Shown here in pieces: positions 22,626-35,207 of a stretch of 35,481 nucleotides of DNA. The stretch is from Vulcanimicrobiota bacterium. Lineage in GTDB: Bacteria; Vulcanimicrobiota; Vulcanimicrobiia; Vulcanimicrobiales; Vulcanimicrobiaceae. The translations under genes were made by a program, and so were the position numbers. The notes under the pieces were generated by a model. That model ran no database searches. It saw only the letters and a program-made list of their open reading frames with translations, and was not told where the DNA came from. The stretch is from positions 1-35,481 of the forward strand of contig PLCF01000043.1 of the NCBI GenBank assembly GCA_003135555.1, read 5' to 3'. Within the stretch, counting starts at the first letter, position 1; the number at the start of each line of letters is the position of its first letter.

Positions 22626-24449
22626 ATGAGAAAACTTGCGGCTTGGTCCGTCGTCTTGGGGGTAGTCGCCGCCTCGTGCTCGGGGCATGGCGCCGGCACA
22701 GCCTTGCCGCCGGGTCGGGCTGCCGACGCAGCGGCGAGCACGATCGGGGCGCATTCCAGCCGCCCGCAGGCCGTTCTCACCGCGCCCGCCGGCTGGGCGA
22801 CGACGGCGACAGGGGTGCTCGCGCTCGCAAACGCCGCCGATCTCGGTCAGCTCGACCGCGCGAAGACCGTCGAGGTCACCCTCGGACTCCAGATGCGCAA
22901 CGTCGAGGCGGCCAAGTCCGCCATCGCGGCGCGTCAGATCATGTCGCGCGACGCGTTCGTGAGCGGGTTCGCACCTTCGCCCGCTCAAGTAGCCGCGGCG
23001 TCGGCGTACCTGCGCGATCAAGGCTTCACCAACGTGACGGCCGCGCCCAACAACATGCTCGTCACCGCGAGCGCGCCGGCCGCGACCGTCGAGAAAGCCT
23101 TCAACACGACGCTGCACGCCTTTAGCGTGAGCGGCAAGAGCTATTTCGCCAACACGCAGCCGGCGTTCGTTCCGACCGCGCTGGGCGGCAACGTCGTCGC
23201 CGTGCTCGGCCTCACCAACGTCCCGGGTCTGCGGGCGGGGCATCCAGTGCAAGCCGCGCCCGGCGCCGCTCCCGGAACCTTCAACGCCAACGGCTCGCCC
23301 CAGCCGACGCCGTGCACGCAGAACATCAACGGGCAGACGGGCACGCCGGTGTGCCATCGGTTCTACGATCCGGCGACGTTCAACATCACCTACGACGCCG
23401 GCACGACGCCGCCGGCGACGAACACCGGCGTCGGCATCTTGACGATCGGCGACCCCACGATCGGGATCGCCGACTTCCGCGACGGCGCGACGCGCTTCGG
23501 GCTGCCGCAAGTCCCGATCAACATCATCAACGTCGAACCGCAGAGCACCGACGTCACCGGCAACGGCGAGTGGACGCTCGACATGACCTATGCGCAGGGC
23601 ATGGCCTACAACCTCAAGCGGATCGATCTCTACAACGTCGCGTCGTTTTCGTTCCACGACCTCACCGTCGGCCTGAACCGCTGGGTCAGCGATGATACCG
23701 ACCCGATCCTCAACGCCTCGCTGGGCGGGTGCGAAGCCTTTCCGTACGAGTCGGGCGACATGCTCGTCGGCGACATGATCCTCGTCGAAGCCGCCGCGCA
23801 AGGTCAGACACTGTTCGCGTCGACCGGCGACACCGGCGGATATTGCGGCGTCGCCGGCGCGCCGCCCAACGGCGGCGTCGGCGGAGCGCCGATGGTCGAG
23901 TATCCCGCGGCGTCTCCGTACGCGGTAGCGGTCGGCGGCACCGACCTCTTCAGCAACGTCGACGGCACGTACTTGGGCGAAGACGCGTGGCAGTCGGGCG
24001 GCGGCGGGATCAGCCAGTTCGAGTACTCGCCGTACTGGGAATCGCCGACCCAGATCGTCGGCACCACCCCGGCCGGCTTAACGTTCCGCGGCTTGCCCGA
24101 CGTCGCATACGATGCCGGGTTGGAAACGGGTGGGCTGACTTGGAACGGCGGCGCGTCGTTCATCAACGGCGGGACGAGCCTGGCCTCGCCGATGGCTGCC
24201 GGCGTGTACGCGCGCATGCAGAGCGCCCACGGCAACGCGCTCGGCTTCGCGCCCATCCTGCTCTATAGTCTCTACGGCAAGAGCACGCCGCAGCAGCTCA
24301 ACGGGCCGCCGGAGACGCAGCTCTACGGTCCCTTCCACGACATTCTGCAGGGCACCAACGGCCTGTACACGGCGTTGCCGAAGTACGACTACACCACCGG
24401 CATGGGAACGATGGATATCGCACGGCTCGCCTCGGCGATCGGTCCGTAA
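22626..24449 (+). CDS. S53 family peptidase (sedolisin/kumamolisin-like) with prodomain, predicted lipoprotein
   Basis: lipobox AASC; catalytic EWTLD, STGDTG oxyanion Asp, GGTSLASP; YDYTTGMG Ca-binding tail. Confidence 0.92.
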   Translation: MRKLAAWSVVLGVVAASCSGHGAGTALPPGRAADAAASTIGAHSSRPQAVLTAPAGWATTATGVLALANAADLGQLDRAKTVEVTLGLQMRNVEAAKSAIAARQIMSRDAFVSGFAPSPAQVAAASAYLRDQGFTNVTAAPNNMLVTASAPAATVEKAFNTTLHAFSVSGKSYFANTQPAFVPTALGGNVVAVLGLTNVPGLRAGHPVQAAPGAAPGTFNANGSPQPTPCTQNINGQTGTPVCHRFYDPATFNITYDAGTTPPATNTGVGILTIGDPTIGIADFRDGATRFGLPQVPINIINVEPQSTDVTGNGEWTLDMTYAQGMAYNLKRIDLYNVASFSFHDLTVGLNRWVSDDTDPILNASLGGCEAFPYESGDMLVGDMILVEAAAQGQTLFASTGDTGGYCGVAGAPPNGGVGGAPMVEYPAASPYAVAVGGTDLFSNVDGTYLGEDAWQSGGGGISQFEYSPYWESPTQIVGTTPAGLTFRGLPDVAYDAGLETGGLTWNGGASFINGGTSLASPMAAGVYARMQSAHGNALGFAPILLYSLYGKSTPQQLNGPPETQLYGPFHDILQGTNGLYTALPKYDYTTGMGTMDIARLASAIGP

Positions 24450-24505: not shown

Positions 24506-24587
24506 GGCCGCGGCGATCGCGCGTTGACGAAGAGTTGACAGTCGCACGGTGCGCAAGGCAACCGTGCGAACCGACAACCGGGGTGCA

Positions 24588-24887
24588 ATGGACAGCGCAA
24601 ACGCGCGGTTTTCCGGACGTTCCAACATCGTCGTTCGCCTGGCGGAAAAGCTCGATCTGAGCACGGCGAACGTCGTTCGCGCGCAGCTGCGCGCCGTCGA
24701 GCGCGCCTGCGAGATCGACCTGAGCCGGGTGCGCAGCATCGACACGGCCGGGATGACGGAGCTGGCGACGCTGGCGCGCCGGCTCGGCCCGCGCTCGGTT
24801 CGCCTGCGTGGCGCCTCGGCGCAGTTCCGCCACGTGCTCGAGCGCGCCGGCTTACAGGCCCTGTTCGACCTCTCCCCCGCGCCCTGA
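24588..24887 (+). CDS. STAS domain protein (anti-sigma factor antagonist-like)
   Basis: LDLSTA, IDLSRVRSIDTAG, VLERAGL. Confidence 0.8.
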   Translation: MDSANARFSGRSNIVVRLAEKLDLSTANVVRAQLRAVERACEIDLSRVRSIDTAGMTELATLARRLGPRSVRLRGASAQFRHVLERAGLQALFDLSPAP

Positions 24888-24969
24888 CCCGGCGCCCCCG
24901 AACGGTCCTTCGCGACCGCGTCAAAGGGTCGAGATAGGGAAACACGCAGGGCTGCGATATTCTCCAGCG

Positions 24970-25740
24970 ATGGCGCTTCCGGTCACGCCTCACGAGGATG
25001 TCAACGGCGTGTTGTTCGCGCTTTCGCGCGACCTGTCGGCAACGTTCGCCGACGATTTCGTCGGCTTGTACCTGACCGGGTCGCTCAGCTACGGCGACTT
25101 CGACCGTGCCAGCAGCGACATCGACTTTCTAGCCGTGCTCGGGCAAGCGGTGAACGCTCAACAGCGCGCTGCGGTGGCGGAGATGCATGCGCGTATCGGG
25201 ACGGCGTTTCCCGAGTGGCAACGCCGGATCGAAGGCTCGTACGTCACGCTCGAAATGCTCGCTAACGCCGAGCCGCCTCGACAGCCCCGGCCGTACGTGA
25301 ACGGCGGCGAGCTGTGGGCGCCCGATCCGACCTACGGCCAGGAATGGATCTTGAACGGGTACGCGCTCTACGAATGCGGGATCGCGGTCGCCGGGCCGGA
25401 CCCGAAAACCCTATTCCGCGATGTCGGCTATGAGGCATATCGCGACGCGTCGATACGGTCGCTGCACGAGGAGTGGGCACCGTTGCTGCGCGACGCGTCC
25501 CGGCTGAAGAACAGTCACTATCAGGCGTACGTCACCCTGACCGTTTGCCGCATTCTGTATACCGCGCGGAACCACGGGCTTGCCTCGAAGCGCACCGCGT
25601 CGCGGTGGGTCAAACAGACGTACGGTGCGCCGTGGCGCGACCTCATCGAGAAGGCGGAGGCGTGGCAGCACGCGCGCGAGCTGCAGGAGGCGCCCGCGGT
25701 GCAGGCTTTCATCGGGTTCGCGCTCGAGCAGGCCGCCTGA
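24970..25740 (+). CDS. AadA-like nucleotidyltransferase (Pol-beta NTase plus DUF4111-like C-terminal domain)
   Basis: GLYLTGSLSYGDF..SSDIDF; LTVCRILYT...SKRTASRW. Confidence 0.82.
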   Translation: MALPVTPHEDVNGVLFALSRDLSATFADDFVGLYLTGSLSYGDFDRASSDIDFLAVLGQAVNAQQRAAVAEMHARIGTAFPEWQRRIEGSYVTLEMLANAEPPRQPRPYVNGGELWAPDPTYGQEWILNGYALYECGIAVAGPDPKTLFRDVGYEAYRDASIRSLHEEWAPLLRDASRLKNSHYQAYVTLTVCRILYTARNHGLASKRTASRWVKQTYGAPWRDLIEKAEAWQHARELQEAPAVQAFIGFALEQAA

Positions 25741-26107
25741 CGATATCCACGTGCACGTATACCTCGAGCACTCGGGCAGCGACGTTCTCGCTCATGTGGG
25801 GACCCGCGGCGGCGCGAGCCAGCACGTACAATTTCTCCATGAAGTGGCATCAAGAGCAACCCCGGAACCAGGACGTTTTGATCGTGGCGTCCGTGCGGAC
25901 CAGCGCAGCGATGGATCTGCCGGCCAGCGGAAACTGCTCGAGGCCGTCGCGAAGAACGTGCGATACCGTCGACGCCCTCTGGTGCGGGGCGAGCGTAGCG
26001 AGCAAGCGGGCGGGCACGAGCTGGACGCCTTCAAGGGTGCCGAGCGCAACCGTTGAATCCAGGGCGTCGGTCCAGCGGAGGGTCGCGGCCGCCCAGGCCG
26101 CTTGTAC

Positions 26108-26150
26108 ACGTTGCCGACGTAGCTCAGTTGGTAGAGCAGCTGTTTCGTAA
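26108..26150 (+). repeat. left att site: ACGTT plus tRNA-Thr nt 1-38 (5' half fragment)
   Basis: identical to 35127-35169; identity stops at the 3' end of the anticodon loop. Confidence 0.95.
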
Positions 26151-26465
26151 TTAACCGCGGCACCTGCACCAAGTATCGTGCGCCGCCGCAACGTACGGCG
26201 TGGTCTCAGGGCACAGAGAATCCCATGCCGCCACGTCTCGCGAGTGCTAGAGCGTGGTCTGTGATTTGGTGGGCCAATTGCGGGCTGGCCGGAAGAAAGC
26301 CGCTGGCCGGACGTCGCCGGTCTGCGCGTAGGTCGGCGGTTCGTAAGAGGGCCGCCTAGTCGGTGGGTCTTGGGGACGCAACGTCGCGCTTCGCGCCGCG
26401 CGCCCCTGAAAAGCCGAGTAGTGTGGTTCCGCTGCGAAACGCAGCGATTGTCTATTGTCGTGAAG

Positions 26466-29108
26466 TCACGGCGGTGTGGCGATATTGACCGGAATCGCGA
26501 TAGTCGCGGAGGTGCCATCGCTGCGGCTCGCGATGAGTGAGGTCTGCAAGGTCGCTTGGCCTACGGGAACCGCGCTAAGGGGGAACGGAAAAGCTGCCTG
26601 CCACTGTCCAGGGCCGGTCTGCACGAGACTGATCGTCTGGGTGCCGACCTGCAGCTTCACGGTGTTGGCGTTTGAGGTCGTGACGACGGCGATGCGTACC
26701 GGCGTGCCGTTGGAGACCACCGTCGGCGCGAGCGTGGCGTAGAAGATCTGGACCGGATCGGTCGGGCGCGCAAAGTTACTCTGCGGCGCCGAGCCGAACG
26801 TGAATACGTTTGTCTGCGCGAACGCCGTCGGCTGCGGGAGCGGCGCCGGCGACGCGGCGACCAGGCCAATCGGCACCGCGATCGCGAGCGGCGATGCCGT
26901 CGGTGCCGGTGCGACGCCGCGTGCGGATGCGGCGGCTCGCGCGTGTGGAATCTGTCCGTTGGGCGCGGGCAGCCGCGTGTTCGGAGGCAGGGTCGGCAGC
27001 GGCGCGGGCGTGGGGATGGTGTGCAGCGCCGGCCCGGGCAGCACGGGAGCACCCGGTTTGACGATGTGCGGGGTCACCACGATGATCAGCTCGTTGCGTT
27101 GACCTTGCACGGAGTCGTTGCGAAAGATGCGCCCGATCAACGGGATATCGCCCAAGAGCGGCAGCTTGGTCGTCGTGCGGGTCTCGTTCTCTTGAATCAG
27201 CCCGCCGATGATGAGCGTCTCGTCGTCGTGCAAGTGCACCGTGGTCTGGGTATCGCGGGTGCTGATCTGCGGCACGCCGTTGTTCGTTCCGATCAGACTG
27301 TTCACCACCGGATGCAGCGTGACGTTGATGCCGCCGTCGGGCGTGACCGAGGGCGTGATGTCCAGTTGGACGCCGGTCTGGAAGCTCTGGACCTGGGTCG
27401 TCGCGATCGTCCCGGCGTTGCCCGAGGTAGTCGTCAAGATCGAGATCGTGTCGCCGGCCCGAATCGACGCGGTGCGCCCGGAAAGCGTGGTGATGCGGGG
27501 GTCGGCGAGCACCCGTCCTTTGCCGTTCTGCACGAGCAGGTTGAGCTGCGCCGTGAAGGAGATCGGGGTGCGAGTGAGCGCCTGGAATTGCCCCAGCCGA
27601 CCTGTAGTCCCGTCGGCATTCGGCGGAGCCGGCATTTCGCTAAAGGTGGTGCTCAGGGCCGCGGTACCCAGCTGCAGGCCCAGGTTCTTGGCCACGCTCT
27701 CATCGACTTCGAGCACCTCGGTGTCGAGCACGACGAGCGGCGGGACGACATCGACCTTGTCGATGAACTGCCGCGCGGAGCGCACGCTGGCGGGCGGACC
27801 CAGGAGCGCGATCTGCCCGGGGGTCGGCAGCTGCACGACCCGTACGTCCGGCGTGACGATCTGCAGCGCTTGGGTGAACGACGTGACCGCATCGACGCCG
27901 CCCTGCGTCGAGCCGGGGATGTACGACTTGAGCGTGACGACATCGGTCGAGCCGTTCCCGGCCGCGGCGGTCTGCCCCACCTGTCCGGTTTGCGCATTCG
28001 GCGGCCCGTCGAGCTGGGTGACCGCGTCCGCGATGCGTTGCTGCTGCGCCGCGTTGGCCGTCACCGCAATCGCGTTGAGCGAGGCGTCGACGGTGACGTC
28101 GAGGTCGCGAAAGCTGCGCCGCAAGAGATCCGCGACGGACGACGCGTCGAGCGTGCGGATGCGATAGACCTGGGTGTAGCGTTCGCCGAAGCTGGGCAGG
28201 TCGAGTTGCGCGACGAGCGCCTTGCCGCGCTGCACGGCCTCGGGCGGCCCGGACAGGACGACGGCGCTGCCGGAGACGGCGGCGTGTAGTCCCGGCACCT
28301 GCGCCGCGAGCGAGCGGGCGACATCGCGCGGCGCGCGCCGCGACACCGGCACGGCCTCGGTCGACAGCGCGACCGGCGGCGGCGTCACGTTGGGCGCGTC
28401 CAACGCGTTGACCGCCGTCTTGATCTGCGCCATCTCGACCGGGCTCGCGGTGACGAGCAGCTGCTTGTCGCCGGCAAGGCCGAAGCGTGCTTTCGGGAAC
28501 GCTTTGCGCAACTGGTCCGCGAGCGCGCCGCCACGCGCTACGCGCAACGGCAATGCTTCGGTCGTGGCCGTCGAGGGGTCGCGCACGTCGATGCCCTGCA
28601 CCACGCTGCGGATCGCCTGCACGTCGGCCGGTGCCGCCGTGACGATGAGGGCATTGGCCCGGTCGTCCTCACGCAGCGAGACTTGTGGGAACAGCGGCCG
28701 CACCAGCGCCGCCGCCCGCTTGGCCGTGACCAGCGACAGCGGGATGACGACCGGTCCGCCCGCACCGGTGCGCGCGGCGCCGTTCGACGCCGCGATGTCG
28801 TACACACCGTCGCGAAGCCGATAGCCGGCGCCCAGCGGCTCGAGAATCGCGCGCAATGCCTGCGCGAGCGTGACCCCGTGCAGCTCGAGCGTCACGTACC
28901 CGCTCACGCCGTCCGAGACCGCGATGTTGGCACCCGTTTGGTGGGCCAACCGCAACAGCACCGCCCGCACCGGCTCGTTCTGCGCGTGCAGCGTCACGCT
29001 CGTTCGCAGCGGCTCGGCCGATCGCGCCGGGGCGCCACCGACCGCCGATGCCAGCCCGAGGCACAGAATCGCGCACCTGCTCCAGCGGTGTGCGCTGCGG
29101 AAATTCAC
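26466..29108 (-). CDS. outer-membrane secretin (GspD/PilQ superfamily): signal peptide, STN, ~5 N domains, secretin core, Pro-rich linker, C-terminal beta domain
   Basis: VLADPRITTLSG, GVQLDITP, ISTRDTQTTV, LIIGGLIQE, KLPLLGDIPLIGRIF, ELIIVVTPHIV. Confidence 0.93.
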   Translation of the reverse strand: MNFRSAHRWSRCAILCLGLASAVGGAPARSAEPLRTSVTLHAQNEPVRAVLLRLAHQTGANIAVSDGVSGYVTLELHGVTLAQALRAILEPLGAGYRLRDGVYDIAASNGAARTGAGGPVVIPLSLVTAKRAAALVRPLFPQVSLREDDRANALIVTAAPADVQAIRSVVQGIDVRDPSTATTEALPLRVARGGALADQLRKAFPKARFGLAGDKQLLVTASPVEMAQIKTAVNALDAPNVTPPPVALSTEAVPVSRRAPRDVARSLAAQVPGLHAAVSGSAVVLSGPPEAVQRGKALVAQLDLPSFGERYTQVYRIRTLDASSVADLLRRSFRDLDVTVDASLNAIAVTANAAQQQRIADAVTQLDGPPNAQTGQVGQTAAAGNGSTDVVTLKSYIPGSTQGGVDAVTSFTQALQIVTPDVRVVQLPTPGQIALLGPPASVRSARQFIDKVDVVPPLVVLDTEVLEVDESVAKNLGLQLGTAALSTTFSEMPAPPNADGTTGRLGQFQALTRTPISFTAQLNLLVQNGKGRVLADPRITTLSGRTASIRAGDTISILTTTSGNAGTIATTQVQSFQTGVQLDITPSVTPDGGINVTLHPVVNSLIGTNNGVPQISTRDTQTTVHLHDDETLIIGGLIQENETRTTTKLPLLGDIPLIGRIFRNDSVQGQRNELIIVVTPHIVKPGAPVLPGPALHTIPTPAPLPTLPPNTRLPAPNGQIPHARAAASARGVAPAPTASPLAIAVPIGLVAASPAPLPQPTAFAQTNVFTFGSAPQSNFARPTDPVQIFYATLAPTVVSNGTPVRIAVVTTSNANTVKLQVGTQTISLVQTGPGQWQAAFPFPLSAVPVGQATLQTSLIASRSDGTSATIAIPVNIATPP

Positions 29109-29119
29109 GGTTGGCCTAC

Positions 29120-29173
29120 TTGACGGGACGAGCGATGAGCGCTTAATATACGGTGCCCTGTACTTTTGGTCAA
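29120..29173. promoter_or_regulatory. overlapping divergent sigma70-type promoters sharing one -10 patch
   Basis: plus strand TTGACG (29120-29125), 18 nt, TAATAT (29144-29149); minus strand TTGACC (29173-29168), 17 nt, TATATT (29150-29145). Confidence 0.7.
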
Positions 29174-29262
29174 GGTGCCGGTATGACTAGGCGCATATCG
29201 TCCTAGGCTATCGGAACAGGCGCATTTTTCGTCTCCGCCTTCCGGGCGGGGGAGCTTTGCTC

Positions 29263-32200
29263 ATGCGTTTGCGCCTTCGGATCACCGTCGTCGTCGTGCT
29301 GTGCCTGTCGCTGGTCGCCCCGCTGCCCGCGGGCATGGCACCCTCCGAGGCCCGCGGGGCAGCGAGGCTTCAACCGGTGGCGATCGCGCTCGCCGCTCCG
29401 CCCGTCCGAGTGCACGTCCCGGAGCCCCCACACGCGCGAGCGTCAATGGTGCCGGCAAGTGCGACGCGTCCGAAGGTCGTCCCCGCCGTTCGACCGCCCA
29501 CCGGTTTGCACGTCGCCGGTCCGCCGATGGCGCGGCCCACCGAGATCGACGGCATTATCAAGGCGGCAGCCCACCGACGCGCATTGGTGCCCGCGGAGAT
29601 CACCGTGAAGCCTGCGGGCAGCGTGCGGCGTGCTGCACCGGGTGCCGCCGCACAGCCGGGCACGCGCCACGCGCAGTCGCTCCCGGGTGATTCCACCGCC
29701 TCGGGAACCGGGATCAATCCGTGGTGGCGCTATCAAGAACAAAGCGTCCCCGGCGGCGGTCGCATAATGGTCAATGTCGGAACCGGCAACCTGTTGCTGC
29801 AAGACGACGACATGTCGGTTCCCCACAAGGGTATCGCCATGGCCTTTCGGCGCACGTACAACTCGCAGAGCGCCGCGAGCGTTCCTCACCAGTTCGGAAG
29901 CTGGACAAGCCTGTACGGAAACGGCTGGACCAACACGGCCGACGCGCACTTTCTCTCGATGTCGTCCACCGTGAAATCGATCTACGACATCGACGGCGCG
30001 CGTTACGACTACTATTCGCCACCCGGAAACCCGGCCGGAACCCCGTTGACCCCACTCACGGCCGGGCAGCACGCCACCCTCGTTTTCGATGGGTCGTGCG
30101 GCTGGCTCTGGACCAAAAAGTCCGGAACCTCGTACTACTTCTACGGCGGCAACCCCACGCTGTGGTGTCCATGGCTCGGCACCGTCGGCGGTTATGCCGG
30201 GCGCCTCTACCAAATCATAGGTCGCAACCGTAATACATATCTGACGTTCAACTACACATGGGACAACGGCGACGCGTCTTCCACCGGGAAGATCAACACA
30301 ATCTCCGCGACAACCGAATCCGGGCTCAATGCGACCCTGGCGTTTGCCGACGTCAACGGACGACGGCTGCTCCAAACGCTCACCTACCCCGACGTAGCGA
30401 CGACAGTCCAGTATGCCTATGATGCCAACGGAAACCTCACCACCGTCTCGCACCCGCCCAATAACGCCGCCGGAACGCGACCGATCCAGTACTTCGGCTA
30501 CCAGACCGTGGGAGCGGACTCGGTGCTGCTGTGGGCTTCGAGCCCCCGTTGGGACGCGGGCCCGTGCTGCATCGACGGCGCATACCTCTATTTCGGCTTC
30601 GCGGGCACAAGCGCAGCTACATCGACGGTCTACTACATCATCCACGAAGGCTTCGCCAACCCAACGATCCCTGATGGCGTGAGCGCCGGCGCAATCCAGC
30701 CGGCATTCGCGAGCGGATACACGAATTTCCTAACCGAGTACTACGGGACCGGCGTCACAACGCCGACGTTCCGCGACACGGACGGCCACTACACCAACTG
30801 GGTCGTCGACGGTTTGGGCCGTCCGACGCAGACGCAAGAATGTACAGCAACTACCGGGACTTGGACGTGCACGGGGACGTATCTCACCACAAACGAGACC
30901 TGGGACGCCAACAACAATCTTACGTCGGAAATGGATCCCCGCGGATATCAGGCCGACTACGCCTACGATGCAATGGGCAACGCGGTTGCCGTGGCACAGC
31001 CGATGGTCACGGTCTCGCAGGGAACCTTTCGTCCCACCTCACTGTTTTCGTACGATTCGTTCAACAACATCACAGCATACTGCGACCCCGACGCGACCCA
31101 CGCTCTGTCAAGTGACTGGACAAGCCCTCCGAGCGGTGACTCGTTGTGCCCGATCACGAGTTTACTTGCGGCACGCTTCATCTGGAGCACTGACCCTACG
31201 CAAAGCGGTAATGCTTCGGCAAGCCCCTCGTATGAGCCGTTCGGCGAGCTCCTAGCCAAGATCGAACCGGGAACGCCCGCGGCCCCGGCCGGGTACCGCG
31301 TCAACTACACCTACGACCCGTCGCGCCAAGGTGGGACAGACTACGGTTTGCCGACGACCGTCGCGGCGGCTGCATCGATCAGCCAGGCTGACGGCACCCA
31401 GCGTCAGCCGTCCCAGAACTTTTGGTATGACAACAACGGCTGGCTGGGGTGTTACAACAAGGGCTCCGGGTTGTGGGTGCTCGGCTACGATGTCCTTGGC
31501 CGCGTTACAACGACCGCAGACCCAGACGATAGCACGAACAACGGCATCTGCAACAAGACGAGTGGGATGACGGGCTGGAACACCGCTTCGACGATAGCCC
31601 GCTTCCCGGACGGCAGCGTTTCGTCAATGCAGTCCCCATCCCAACGCGCCGCGGGCATCAGCAGCACGCTCACCTACGATTTGGACGGGAACGTGAGCAC
31701 CGAAACGCATCATTTCGGCTGCACGTCGGTTTCGTCATGCACGGCCGGCGTCACGAGCAAGTGGTATGACGGCGCAGACCGGCTCGTGGAAGTATCGCTT
31801 CCCTACGACGCATACGACATTCAGGGCTATCCGATGCTGACGCGGTACGTTTACGACCTGAGTCAAAGCGGGACGACGCCATACCAGGGCCTTGGACTTC
31901 GAGGCTACGGCAATCTCGTCAAGACGCAGGAATTTCTCTCCGGCACCGTCATCACTCCGTTTACGTACCAAACGGCCTCAACGTTTGGTCAGCTTCCGCC
32001 TTCAACGGGCACTTGGACCGACATTCGTGCGACGTCGTTCGACGGACTCGATCGGGCCCTATCGGCATATGAAGCAGCCTTTGCTAGTCAGCCCAAGATT
32101 GCAAACTCGTACGACGGCGCACCGCCCGGCGGCGGAGCAGCTCAACTGGGCCTGCTATCCTCCGTCGCGCTGGCGACAAACGAGACTAAGCAATACACCT

Positions 32201-34332
32201 ATGACCCGCTTGGACATTTGACCGACACATCGTACTTGAACGACAATGGCGCCACGTCGCCGGCTCACGTGCGCTACGACGCGAGCGGTCGAGTCGTCTC
32301 TCGCGGCACGGATGCCTTGGGCAATGAGATACTACAGTATGACGCCGCCGGTGAACTAACGACCGCCGCGAAACCCCCGTCGCTTGGAAGTGCGACGATT
32401 GGGTACGACTACTACAGCGACGGAGCACGCAGGGACCTGAACTTCTCGTCTCCGGTGTACACAGCTGCGCTGCTCTATCAGTATTCATATCGATCCGATG
32501 GACATCGATCATCGCTGACGCTCAACAATGGCACAGGATTCACGTGGGCCTATACGCCCGCAGGACGGCTTCAGGTCCAGACTGATCCGCTCACAGGCAG
32601 GGCGATCTCTCCTGACAACTACTTCACCAGGGGGAAGTCGCTTACGCAATGGCCGTACTATCCGTCGTCGGTGACGTATGTTCCGGAGACCTACTCGTTC
32701 GACAGCTACGGCCGAGCGACTGGTGTGACGCTTCCTGCTGGAGTGTTTTCTCAAAGCGTGAGCGGATTCGATCTGGACGACGGCGTCACAGGGTTGAGTG
32801 CCCTTAGCGTGCAGGCACCGACCAATGTGACCATGGTAACGTGCGCGACCTCCAATGTGCGCAACGAGAAGCTGCCCACCTATAGGGGTTCCTGCGCGGG
32901 GCGTTTCTACAACGGGGCAACCTTTGCACTCCAGCAGACTGGCCTAGGCCTCACGCCGTGGACGATCGACGCGCGTGCTGGCATGCTGAAGAGTTGGGTT
33001 GGGCCGATGGGCCCGACCGACGTTAGCTCCGGCCAATTCGCGTATGACGCTTCCGGTCGTCTGACGGCAGACACCGAACAGCTCAACCGGGCGTGGCGCA
33101 GCGGTGACCCATCGATGCCGGGCAACGTCGTCTATTCTACCGGGACGCGCACGAAGAGCTACGATGCGGAAAATCGCTTACGCTCACAGCAAACGTCGCC
33201 TGCGGCACCTCCGACAATCCCGTCGTGGGGGGAGAGCATACTGGGTGGATATTGGAACGACGAAAGCCAGCCGTCTGGAGACGAAATTCAGGCTGTCGAC
33301 TACGCTGCGGACAGTCACCCCGCGCGGTTTGCAATCACACAGACACCCGACGCCGGGACGTCAGCGACGCCCGGGGCGCTGTTCTGGCTCTGGGATGGAA
33401 GCGACCTGCTGGCACAGTGCGGCTATTGGTCCCCGCAGGCACAATGCGCGACGTACGGCTTTTCAGTGGAAGGCCTTGCCAACTACACTCCGTCGAATGG
33501 CTACACCTCCGTGCAAGATCGGGATCTCTCAGGCCAAGTCGTCGCAAGCCATGATGCGATGAGCTTCTCGGGGATGAAGCCCATCGGTCGCAATTCGCGA
33601 ACGTATTTTTATCCCGGGCTCTGGGCATCTGCAGCGCCGAACAGCGCGTCGCCCGAAACTGCCGGAGGACTGCCAGGACCGGCGACGATCTTAGCCGGCA
33701 GCAAGATTGCAATCGATGGGTGGACTTTCGACAACAATACGTGGCAAGGCGTCCGCACGTACGATGCATCGGTTGGCCAATGGAACACCCCCGACGCCTT
33801 CGCTGGCAACGTCCACGACCCCATGAGCCAGAAGCCCTATATGTGGAATCGGAACAATCCGTATGCGTACAGCGACCCGAGCGGGTTCGCCTATGAACCG
33901 GCTTGCGACGCAGTGTGCTCCGAACGCGGAAGTAGGCTGGGGGCCCTCATCTGGAACTTCCTTTTTGGTGACGATATCAAGACAGTGATGTCTGCAGGAG
34001 CGCCCATAGGTGCGCGGGCGCTTGCTGCCGCAAGCTTAGCGTCGACAGTCGTAGACGCGCCAGTTAAGGGGATTTTCAAAGGGCTCGGAATCGCTGAAAA
34101 GGCATTCGCTGGGTTCACCGAACACGGAGCAGCGCAATTTCTGGCTCGCGACGGAGGGAGGGGAGTTTCGACCGACGCACTTCGCGACGCGCTCACCCAT
34201 CCGCTTTCCACGAAGCTGCAGGACAAGGGCACAATAATGGTTACCGGAAGAGATGCGGTTGTGATACTCAACAAAGACGGAGCAGTCGTTACTACGTGGG
34301 CGACGAGCAATCGGGGCATCCGTAAGAAATAG
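29263..34332 (+). CDS. Rhs/YD-repeat polymorphic toxin with predicted Sec signal, DUF6531-like domain and C-terminal putative RNase
   Basis: hydrophobic N-terminus; VNVGTGNL...AFRRTYNS; many YDxxGxL repeats; RTYDASVGQW...NPYAYSDPSG core end (DPSG at 33874-33885); GGGAG RBS 8 nt before ATG 29263. Confidence 0.93.
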   Translation: MRLRLRITVVVVLCLSLVAPLPAGMAPSEARGAARLQPVAIALAAPPVRVHVPEPPHARASMVPASATRPKVVPAVRPPTGLHVAGPPMARPTEIDGIIKAAAHRRALVPAEITVKPAGSVRRAAPGAAAQPGTRHAQSLPGDSTASGTGINPWWRYQEQSVPGGGRIMVNVGTGNLLLQDDDMSVPHKGIAMAFRRTYNSQSAASVPHQFGSWTSLYGNGWTNTADAHFLSMSSTVKSIYDIDGARYDYYSPPGNPAGTPLTPLTAGQHATLVFDGSCGWLWTKKSGTSYYFYGGNPTLWCPWLGTVGGYAGRLYQIIGRNRNTYLTFNYTWDNGDASSTGKINTISATTESGLNATLAFADVNGRRLLQTLTYPDVATTVQYAYDANGNLTTVSHPPNNAAGTRPIQYFGYQTVGADSVLLWASSPRWDAGPCCIDGAYLYFGFAGTSAATSTVYYIIHEGFANPTIPDGVSAGAIQPAFASGYTNFLTEYYGTGVTTPTFRDTDGHYTNWVVDGLGRPTQTQECTATTGTWTCTGTYLTTNETWDANNNLTSEMDPRGYQADYAYDAMGNAVAVAQPMVTVSQGTFRPTSLFSYDSFNNITAYCDPDATHALSSDWTSPPSGDSLCPITSLLAARFIWSTDPTQSGNASASPSYEPFGELLAKIEPGTPAAPAGYRVNYTYDPSRQGGTDYGLPTTVAAAASISQADGTQRQPSQNFWYDNNGWLGCYNKGSGLWVLGYDVLGRVTTTADPDDSTNNGICNKTSGMTGWNTASTIARFPDGSVSSMQSPSQRAAGISSTLTYDLDGNVSTETHHFGCTSVSSCTAGVTSKWYDGADRLVEVSLPYDAYDIQGYPMLTRYVYDLSQSGTTPYQGLGLRGYGNLVKTQEFLSGTVITPFTYQTASTFGQLPPSTGTWTDIRATSFDGLDRALSAYEAAFASQPKIANSYDGAPPGGGAAQLGLLSSVALATNETKQYTYDPLGHLTDTSYLNDNGATSPAHVRYDASGRVVSRGTDALGNEILQYDAAGELTTAAKPPSLGSATIGYDYYSDGARRDLNFSSPVYTAALLYQYSYRSDGHRSSLTLNNGTGFTWAYTPAGRLQVQTDPLTGRAISPDNYFTRGKSLTQWPYYPSSVTYVPETYSFDSYGRATGVTLPAGVFSQSVSGFDLDDGVTGLSALSVQAPTNVTMVTCATSNVRNEKLPTYRGSCAGRFYNGATFALQQTGLGLTPWTIDARAGMLKSWVGPMGPTDVSSGQFAYDASGRLTADTEQLNRAWRSGDPSMPGNVVYSTGTRTKSYDAENRLRSQQTSPAAPPTIPSWGESILGGYWNDESQPSGDEIQAVDYAADSHPARFAITQTPDAGTSATPGALFWLWDGSDLLAQCGYWSPQAQCATYGFSVEGLANYTPSNGYTSVQDRDLSGQVVASHDAMSFSGMKPIGRNSRTYFYPGLWASAAPNSASPETAGGLPGPATILAGSKIAIDGWTFDNNTWQGVRTYDASVGQWNTPDAFAGNVHDPMSQKPYMWNRNNPYAYSDPSGFAYEPACDAVCSERGSRLGALIWNFLFGDDIKTVMSAGAPIGARALAAASLASTVVDAPVKGIFKGLGIAEKAFAGFTEHGAAQFLARDGGRGVSTDALRDALTHPLSTKLQDKGTIMVTGRDAVVILNKDGAVVTTWATSNRGIRKK

Positions 34333-34361
34333 ACTGACGGACGCGACGGAAGGAGATTTCG

Positions 34362-34592
34362 ATGCTGTCAGCCGCGCAGCGGCGCCTTCTTAAGGAAGCG
34401 GTCGAACAATATTCGCCCACGCTGATCGATTTAGCGTCTTGTGATGTCTTGGCGTTGCCACTTGAGCAAAGAAACCAGCTGCGCTCGGCGCTTGGCGACT
34501 ACCTGAGTGCCAAAGGCTTCGATAAGAACTGGAATCCGACGTCGGTCGGACGCGCCATCGAGGAGCTGATCGACGCCTTGGGACCTAGATAG
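34362..34592 (+). CDS. putative cognate immunity protein (76 aa)
   Basis: strong RBS GGAAGGAG; starts ~30 nt after the toxin stop; small helical protein ending GFDKNWNPTSVGRAIEELIDAL. Confidence 0.75.
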   Translation: MLSAAQRRLLKEAVEQYSPTLIDLASCDVLALPLEQRNQLRSALGDYLSAKGFDKNWNPTSVGRAIEELIDALGPR

Positions 34593-35077: not shown

Positions 35078-35131
35078 AGGGCCGAGTGACACCAAGGCGA
35101 GTAGGCGGGGAAAGCCCGCTAGATCAACGTT

Positions 35132-35207
35132 GCCGACGTAGCTCAGTTGGTAGAGCAGCTGTTTCGTAAATAGCAGGTCGCCGGTTCGAGTCCGGCCGTC
35201 GGCTCCA
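35132..35207 (+). tRNA. tRNA-Thr(CGT)
   Basis: 76-nt cloverleaf: GCCGACG/CGTCGGC acceptor stem, GCTGT-TTCGTAA-ATAGC anticodon arm, GGTTCGAGTCC T arm, encoded CCA. Confidence 0.97.

Follow-up and report, generated by a model that had tools for sequence, protein, structure and literature searches.

How does a large Rhs toxin that carries a Sec-type signal peptide leave a cell with two membranes? The question is raised by a 35,481-nucleotide contig (C74, hereafter the window) from a 3.57-Mb, 84% complete genome of Vulcanimicrobiota, a diderm phylum whose cultured representative is described as having an inner membrane, thin peptidoglycan, a lipopolysaccharide outer membrane and type IV pili (PMC9758169). 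The window contains a 9-kb island with an 880-aa secretin, a divergently transcribed Rhs protein with a signal peptide, and one small open reading frame (ORF) 3′ of the Rhs gene. A sequence-only reading of this DNA had named the secretin, the 1689-aa Rhs protein and the small ORF as the island's confident genes, as our ORF and Pfam scans bear out, and had proposed that the Rhs protein leaves through its own dedicated secretin. Across the phylum, the secretin–Rhs association is solid at the level of genes, and we consider it likely that the long secretin of Vulcanimicrobiota is linked to its cargo and lets large Sec-exported proteins, Rhs among them, out through the outer membrane, serving also in trans. 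The export mechanism itself we infer from evidence that is genomic throughout.

Loci were drawn from an even sample of 251 genomes of the phylum, taking all secretin and all Rhs matches outside genus g1, save those of genome G254, and 53 secretin loci, part of all matches, within g1. The pair recurs in 38 genomes and 12 genera, in both layouts. Outside g1, 30 of the 36 assessable secretins lie at most 3 kb from an Rhs gene (24 genomes, 11 genera), against a rough chance expectation of about 1%. Among the 40 non-g1 secretin matches spanning at least 400 profile positions, 29 are near this Rhs family (≤3 kb; two are deletion relics), one is beside another Rhs lineage, four are beside S8 proteases, two have neither neighbor and four are at contig ends. 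Of the full pairs outside g1, 21 have the divergent layout and seven are co-oriented, indicating that the linkage outlives rearrangement, and it holds down to 47–54% secretin and 31–41% Rhs identity (minimum–median). Rhs linkage is also spread over deep branches of an 87-sequence secretin tree, built by a quick method with two long-branch warnings. Several genomes carry multiple pairs (two each in G205, G179, G173, G142 and G042; three in G025), and in G163 the secretin is paired with a 1725-aa signal-peptide Rhs that the family profile missed and that has weak YD similarity (best 34.7 bits). The sequence-only reading had staked its proposal on conservation of this adjacency in other genomes, and by genera, branches, layouts and the unrelated Rhs partner it is conserved.

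The g1 loci are more varied: 18 of the 53 secretins adjoin an Rhs gene, 13 an S8 protease and 16 occupy a core locus, with three having no such neighbor and three at contig edges. In one g1 clade of 17 secretins (starred in the tree), 15 are Rhs-adjacent and two are at contig ends. Long secretins with a neighbor other than Rhs mostly adjoin an exported S8 protease. The idea of a secretin dedicated to Rhs alone therefore has to be given up, since members of sister clades adjoin large exported S8 proteases or occupy the core prfB-region locus. The long secretin family is narrow (46 of 251 genomes, 45 of these in the host family), and the Rhs family has a matching range (51 of 251); 35 genomes share both against about 13 expected by chance within the host family, a count in which kin genomes are not independent and the unpublished genome G254 is among the 16 with Rhs only.

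Deletions treat the two genes jointly. The window genome holds two internally deleted module copies, each joining the secretin 3′ end directly to the Rhs 3′ part with the tip and an immunity-like ORF, along with a separate secretin remnant, and a further relic with the same joint deletion pattern is found in G179 (L219). A sister strain in three of four peat runs has a contig that skips from 25745 to 30266 of the window across ~1.8 kb of other sequence, too short for a secretin; both the window form and the sister-strain form are present in run X2. A protein beginning at Rhs residue 335 is on record, and a metagenome contig scan for the sister-strain junction gave 0 matches. The deletions take the 5′ parts of secretin and Rhs together and spare the tip and immunity ORF. 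Such joint loss of the export half and the toxin N-terminus, with immunity kept, is as expected of one functional unit.

No motor travels with the pair. As the sequence-only reading had noted from the letters, the island has no ATPase, platform, pilin, VgrG, PAAR or Hcp match in Pfam and ORF scans, nor an integrase match; the Pfam scans also returned no Omp85-family TpsB domain in the island and no TPS (two-partner secretion) domain on Rhs. Among 43 pair loci there is no GspE ATPase, GspF platform or N-methyl pseudopilin. The most telling lineage is g13, in which eight genomes carry pairs and all eight genomes with a long secretin also have Rhs. A PilB/GspE query matched 0/61 g13 genomes, seven of them pair-bearing, against 10/12 in the control set, and N-methyl pilin motifs were found in 0/9 g13 genomes against 19/19 other genomes. 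In G097 (g17), too, the pair is present and PilB was not found. Since the g13 pairs occur without PilB or N-methyl pilins, a dispersed type II secretion system (T2SS) or type IVa pilus (T4aP) cannot be a general requirement. The proposal that host T2SS or pilus inner-membrane parts assist thus fails for g13, where Tad parts are usually present, and stands as a possibility in the window genome. Specifically, a Tad system with its own secretin occurs in five of six g13 pair genomes checked and not in G185, which has a pair yet no ATPase, platform, pilin or second secretin. Five short PF00437 matches in g13 were considered as hidden PilB/PilT; the one examined, in G205, is of conjugative TrbB/VirB11 type, among coupling-protein and VirB3/4-like ORFs. 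The genus as a whole (61 genomes) apparently lacks the type IVa pilus ATPase.

The features of the Rhs protein are compatible with passage through the periplasm. It comprises a predicted Sec-type signal peptide, a ~110-aa Pro/Ala/Arg-rich linker, DUF6531, a YD-repeat shell and a C-terminal domain. Its start, MRLRLR-ITVVVVLCLSLV-APLPAG, runs from basic through hydrophobic to small residues, as the sequence-only reading had recognized. A 12-residue hydrophobic stretch with a mean hydropathy of at least 1.7, a criterion that does not fix the cleavage site, is present in the starts of 41/46 homologues in a first set and of 40/44 from other genera (3 doubtful, with truncated starts). The Cys pair 607/629 is invariant in 91/91 sequences and the pair 279/302 was counted at 72/92 and 67/72, which fits an oxidizing periplasmic stage. 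In Pfam the window protein matches RHS_repeat (96.7 bits) and DUF6531, with Rhs_assc_core at 1496–1541 below cut-off; the core end motif is PYAYSDPSG, and the sole solved-structure match is RhsA (7q97, E 1.7e-6). The gene has a GC content of 0.61, and that of the secretin gene is host-like at 0.69.

The N0 domain is the part of a T2SS secretin that touches the inner-membrane platform, and 28 of 36 non-g1 matches of the long family start after it. The window secretin retains it: an AlphaFold model (mean pLDDT 69) places a signal peptide, N0/STN at 38–106, five KH-like N domains at 120–452 and the secretin domain at 458–684, followed by a disordered Pro-rich linker and a C-terminal all-β domain at 765–880. 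The last is Ig-like by a weak atlas lead, with matches below 0.9 and Vulcanimicrobiota clusters ranking first. Foldseek ranks T2SS GspD/PulD/ExeD chains best at 17–20% identity; among curated models TIGR02517 scores highest (202 bits against a cut-off of 351), and the protein falls below the cut-offs of the GspD, PilQ, MshL and SctC models. Homologues belong to Vulcanimicrobiota/Ca. Eremiobacterota, the closest often to Ca. Elarobacter, plus a few differently labeled bins (among the best 80 of 143 matches). A representative search returned ~40 family-like proteins and then giant multi-N-domain secretins; these next-best profile matches measure 2400–5500 aa with 12–46 matched stretches, or N-domain repeats (P0038, P0043, P0050 and many later rows).

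The window genome encodes seven secretin domains: three in tad clusters, one PilQ-like and three long paralogues, namely the island copy, a copy between secA and prfB and a copy beside a 1590-aa exported S8 protease, with no motor genes near any of the three. A misplaced PilQ was rejected as the identity of the island secretin, given that a distinct PilQ-like secretin of 500 aa, outside the long family, is encoded near a pilin on contig C44, as was RcpA, given that the three tad clusters' own secretins form a separate 100/100 branch. The core-locus form in g1 (L017 = G000:C95:8255-11110; L086–L101) lies between secA and an amidohydrolase/prfB region or beside rpmE/prfA, and neither a motor gene nor evident cargo was found near these core-locus secretins.

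From these elements we would order export as follows. The Rhs protein would cross the inner membrane via Sec, form its disulfides and fold at least partly in the periplasm, enter the ring stack of five N domains, and either exit through the secretin or stay held by it at the surface. Extra Rhs paralogues encoded elsewhere could use the linked secretin or a core-locus paralogue in trans. The Rhs autoprotease would cut the tip, which would poison neighbors that do not carry the downstream immunity gene. In sister clades the cargo would be exported S8 proteases, mostly of ~1500 aa. By size the passage is borderline: the RhsA shell measures 86 × 65 Å (PMC8765631), and secretin lumens below the gate are tabulated at ~72–79 Å, with 65-Å cholera toxin passing (PMC12114550, Table 2). 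As to energy, we regard a motor-less, folding-driven ratchet and a borrowed Tad or T4aP motor as about equally likely. That one secretin gene, joined in some lineages by a cupredoxin-fold lipoprotein, might suffice as a motor-less system to carry a 170–190-kDa Rhs shell or a giant protease over the outer membrane is a possibility we raise tentatively; it would amount to two-partner secretion with a T2SS-type pore and would be the chief means of toxin delivery in a phylum where no T6SS was found.

Several observations weigh against export through the long secretin. Counted by Rhs locus, the association loosens: of 94 assessable loci, 51 have a secretin or its remnant upstream and 43 do not (12 more are at contig ends), and in g1 29 of 47 assessable Rhs genes have no adjacent secretin, which speaks against the strict dedication first envisaged. 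Many unlinked copies have a linked paralogue in the same genome, and 11 of 12 g1 genomes with unlinked Rhs carry a long secretin elsewhere, which fits use in trans. Harder to accommodate are 14 of 17 Rhs-bearing genomes that hold no full long secretin when re-searched by family profile; eight of these are fragmented or have only Rhs fragments, six are well assembled, and single-ORF Rhs genes occur without a full long secretin in G159 (40 contigs, 96%) and G189 (10 contigs, 93%). The Rhs-bearing G168 and G202 gave no secretin-domain match at all; their Rhs genes are split and the neighbors relic. Split Rhs ORFs were weighed as evidence that Rhs decays where the secretin is missing and were set aside as weak (4/10, against 4/39 linked and 9/40 unlinked), because indels in long reads split ORFs too and the frameshift in G185 escaped the script. 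That frameshift, early in Rhs just after the linker and due to decay or long-read error, itself detracts from the one pair whose genome has no ATPase, platform, pilin or other secretin. In addition, 16 core-locus and five other secretins have no large exported neighbor. Secretin and Rhs distances are uncorrelated within g1 (rho 0.26, 151 of 999 permutations), and the overall rho of 0.49 mostly tracks host genus. The window genome possesses a T4aP (PilB/PilT/PilC on a different contig from the PilQ-like secretin near a pilin on C44) and three Tad systems, so a motor could be borrowed there. Finally, open GspD gates are quoted in a review at 53 and 48 Å (PMC9251779), below the folded 65-Å shell.

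The alternative that survives best, which we nevertheless hold to be rather unlikely, ties the secretin to the toxin and points it inward: it would import DNA, peptides or other remains of neighbors that were killed or digested, and Rhs and the S8 proteases would leave by vesicles, lysis or another route. The 154-bp gap between the genes contains two divergent sigma70-like sites against 0.1 ± 0.3 in shuffles, and this shared promoter-like region agrees with co-regulation of any kind; none of the RNA runs contains the island. Uptake would account for pairing with toxins and proteases alike and for intact Rhs in secretin-less genomes, and HofQ/PilQ-type secretins do import DNA. However, secretin-mediated DNA uptake needs a retractile type IV pilus, and the g13 pairs persist without PilB or N-methyl pilins; duplication of the secretin along with every Rhs, one for one, better suits cargo specificity than general uptake, and the exit of a 180-kDa periplasmic protein is left unexplained.

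A second alternative, which we judge unlikely, is hitchhiking, in which both genes are carried by small mobile cassettes, Rhs gets out in vesicles or through the general T4aP/Tad secretins, and the long secretin has a job of its own. The modules of the window genome do lie in tRNA-targeted islands: the window island is bounded by two copies, 9019 bp apart, of a 46-nt repeat that is the 5′ half of tRNA-Thr(CGT), and the C56 relic occupies a 4.3-kb island between tRNA-Asn and a 44-nt repeat of that tRNA's 3′ part. No integrase remnant was found among five island flank ORFs, and no excision joint between the 46-nt repeats in four runs of contigs, from which rare forms drop out. Across the 43 pair loci, however, no mobility gene is common and a tRNA occurs in only 4; the only widely recurring genes encode a TPR-LuxR regulator, in 15 loci of 4 genera, and a lipoprotein with a cupredoxin fold, in 12 loci. 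This scarcity of recurring genes favors function over hitchhiking, as do the unrelated Rhs partner in G163 and the exported S8 protease as the usual alternative neighbor. The Rhs loci without a secretin and its loss from the sister strain suit a chance association, and non-independence of kin overstates the counts; yet the linkage survives sequence divergence, orientation flips and partner swaps, in all of which a large exported neighbor is retained.

Also unlikely, and ranked last, is that the secretin is a surface anchor or scaffold in which Rhs is lodged or tethered for contact-dependent display, or through which only the cleaved tip is exported from a periplasmic shell: the quoted gate widths, the missing linked motor and an unusually long five-KH stack that could hold the shell speak for it, but the S8 protease partners have no small cleavable tip known here, and it departs from the export we favor only in what crosses the gate.

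Export by a cargo-linked secretin, the reading we prefer, works most like two-partner secretion and contact-dependent inhibition (CDI) in its logic and most like the T2SS in its pore, and by defining features the arrangement belongs to neither, nor to T4aP, Tad or type VI secretion (T6SS). With TpsB–TpsA and CdiB–CdiA–CdiI it shares one pore gene, a giant, presumably Sec-exported toxin with a variable tip, one putative immunity gene and the lack of a linked cytoplasmic motor; it differs in that the pore is an oligomeric secretin rather than an Omp85-family TpsB and the cargo an Rhs shell rather than a β-helix with a TPS domain. ShlB/TpsB matched in 1/29 genomes, in a scan whose control set gave no signal. 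With the T2SS it shares two-step logic, signal-peptide cargo and a secretin with N0 and KH N-domains whose best structural matches are PulD, GspD and ExeD; gspD may moreover stand as a lone gene in T2SS models, and co-option of secretins is described as common (PMC6668835). In contrast to the T2SS, long-family loci have no GspE, GspF or pseudopilin, and none was found genome-wide in g13; the long secretin has five KH domains, often no N0 and an extra C-terminal β domain, and it is encoded beside its presumed cargo. It is not an orthologue of PilQ, pairs persist without PilB, and it does not lie in a tad cluster. Filamentous phage pIV operates with a phage ATPase. Like the long secretin, it stands outside pilus and T2SS machines (PMC12114550), whereas no ATPase or phage gene recurs at the 43 pair loci.

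The toxin–immunity part is an ordinary polymorphic toxin; novelty lies in the export arrangement only and would be void if export were secretin-independent. It resembles T6SS Rhs effectors (RhsA, Rhs1) and WapA in its DUF6531/YD-repeat shell, in its core end motif, in C-termini that vary across the family and include known toxin domains, and in a downstream immunity-like ORF. Unlike the T6SS effectors it has no PAAR or VgrG, and the sheath family VipB was found in 0/251 genomes of the phylum (control positive in Escherichia coli). It shares a signal peptide with WapA and differs in its diderm host, conserved Cys pairs and linked secretin. The sequence-only reading had regarded a Sec-signal Rhs as unusual in diderms, which does not hold: in the survey of Zhang et al. 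(2012), 'T2SS/Sec-dependent' toxins, with RHS proteins among them, are already recorded from all bacteria, and signal-peptide Rhs toxins are the commonest trafficking class (PMC3482391). What stands is the linked partner, as that class is presented without a signature neighbor gene. Neisseria MafB in the same survey is likewise partnered, by the dedicated upstream envelope protein MafA; MafA is not a secretin, and the word secretin is absent from 300,000 characters of the survey's text (PMC3482391). Literature searches, with most subscription journals and all supplements outside their coverage, found no published description of a secretin–Rhs pair.

By the usual teaching, a secretin is a passive gated pore whose opening requires an ATP-driven machine, be it pilus, needle or phage. 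If the reading is correct, a secretin that accompanies its cargo across lineages lacking a type II or IVa motor would represent a new type of secretion, and a minimal setting in which to study how a secretin gate is opened. It would offer an answer to an old gap, namely how signal-peptide Rhs toxins cross the diderm outer membrane. The pairing in soil and peat Vulcanimicrobiota points to a putative, undescribed export route for large toxins; if real, it would define the weapon used between bacteria by a soil phylum that is widespread and in which no T6SS sheath gene was detected.

At the toxin end, the C-termini are polymorphic, with 88 tips falling into 69 clusters. Known domains among 65 scanned tips are HNH, AHH, LHH, REase-7, Ntox24, Ntox28, Ntox33 and SLT; eight of the 65 either match Ntox33 or reach the Pfam threshold of a family of nucleases, toxins or SLT. 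Searches of PDB sequences, Pfam and NCBIfam returned nothing for the window tip, which may resemble a colicin-E5-like RNase. Its last 81 aa share 47–48% identity with the C-termini of two unrelated 372–373-aa proteins, as expected of a swappable toxin tip. We infer an immunity role for the 76-aa ORF from its position; it has one 53% homologue among small ORFs ~3.5 kb downstream of Rhs in G035 and no family match in Pfam/NCBIfam-type scans.

Table 1. Features of the window (contig C74), with related remnants elsewhere in the same genome (G000)
Feature	Position	Strand	Basis or remark
Exported S53/kumamolisin-like protease	22626-24449	+	left of island; outside module in relatives
STAS protein	24549-24887	+	left of island; outside module in relatives
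AadA-like nucleotidyltransferase	24808-25740	+	left of island; outside module in relatives
Left island border: displaced copy of 5′ 46 nt of tRNA-Thr, att-like direct repeat	26108..26153	+	98% identity to 35127-35172
Long secretin, 880 aa	26466..29108	-	Pfam STN (below cut-off), Secretin_N x2, Secretin
Family-specific C-terminal β domain of secretin, at GspD S-domain position	26469..26816	-	pLDDT 75-95; no Pfam match
Overlapping back-to-back sigma70-like promoter sites, secretin/Rhs intergenic region	29120..29173	.	consensus match only
Rhs polymorphic toxin, 1689 aa from ATG	29263..34332	+	DUF6531 + RHS repeats; 154 bp from secretin start
Variable C-terminal (toxin) domain, 148 aa	33886..34332	+	unique among 88 C-termini
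Putative immunity protein, 76 aa	34362..34592	+	position; 29 bp past Rhs stop
Right island border and intact tRNA-Thr(CGT)	35127..35207 (tRNA 35132-35207)	+	repeat copy 35127-35172
Deleted relic L019	G000:C30:2161-6971		different toxin tip, immunity-like ORF
Deleted relic L020	G000:C56:95607-97084		different toxin tip, immunity-like ORF
Secretin remnant	G000:C58:91481-91573		last 31 codons only

The two recurring companions of the pair deserve description. TPR-like proteins with a LuxR helix-turn-helix domain, 450–550 aa, lie in or beside the module (L066, L070, L071, L074–L076, L234, L235, L239, L246) and are likely its regulators. The 200-aa lipoprotein lies directly after the secretin in 12 loci of g13 and g3 and is absent from the window genome. 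Its model adopts a cupredoxin fold (amicyanin, Z 8.3, root-mean-square deviation 2.8, 103 aligned residues); the family (L241:12694-13353, 18 homologues) has an invariant Cys pair, an HSAV motif and no Pfam family, and is found directly 3′ of the secretin in g13, g3, g29, g34 and g39. A pilotin role would be a guess.

A second module combines a long secretin, two small exported proteins with no Pfam family, a 1500–1600-aa exported S8 protease and often a 600-aa NHL-like lipoprotein (L018:9082-18429 on G000:C73, L094, L096, L100, L103, L105, L254, L258–L264), making the S8 protease a candidate second cargo class. In G015 (L041) the 3′ end of an Rhs gene is 1.3 kb away from a PilQ-like secretin, which we took as a chance insertion. 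Tandem arrays of full-length Rhs genes surround one secretin in two places, with four in L224/L235 (G155:C4) and two in L247 (G239:C181).

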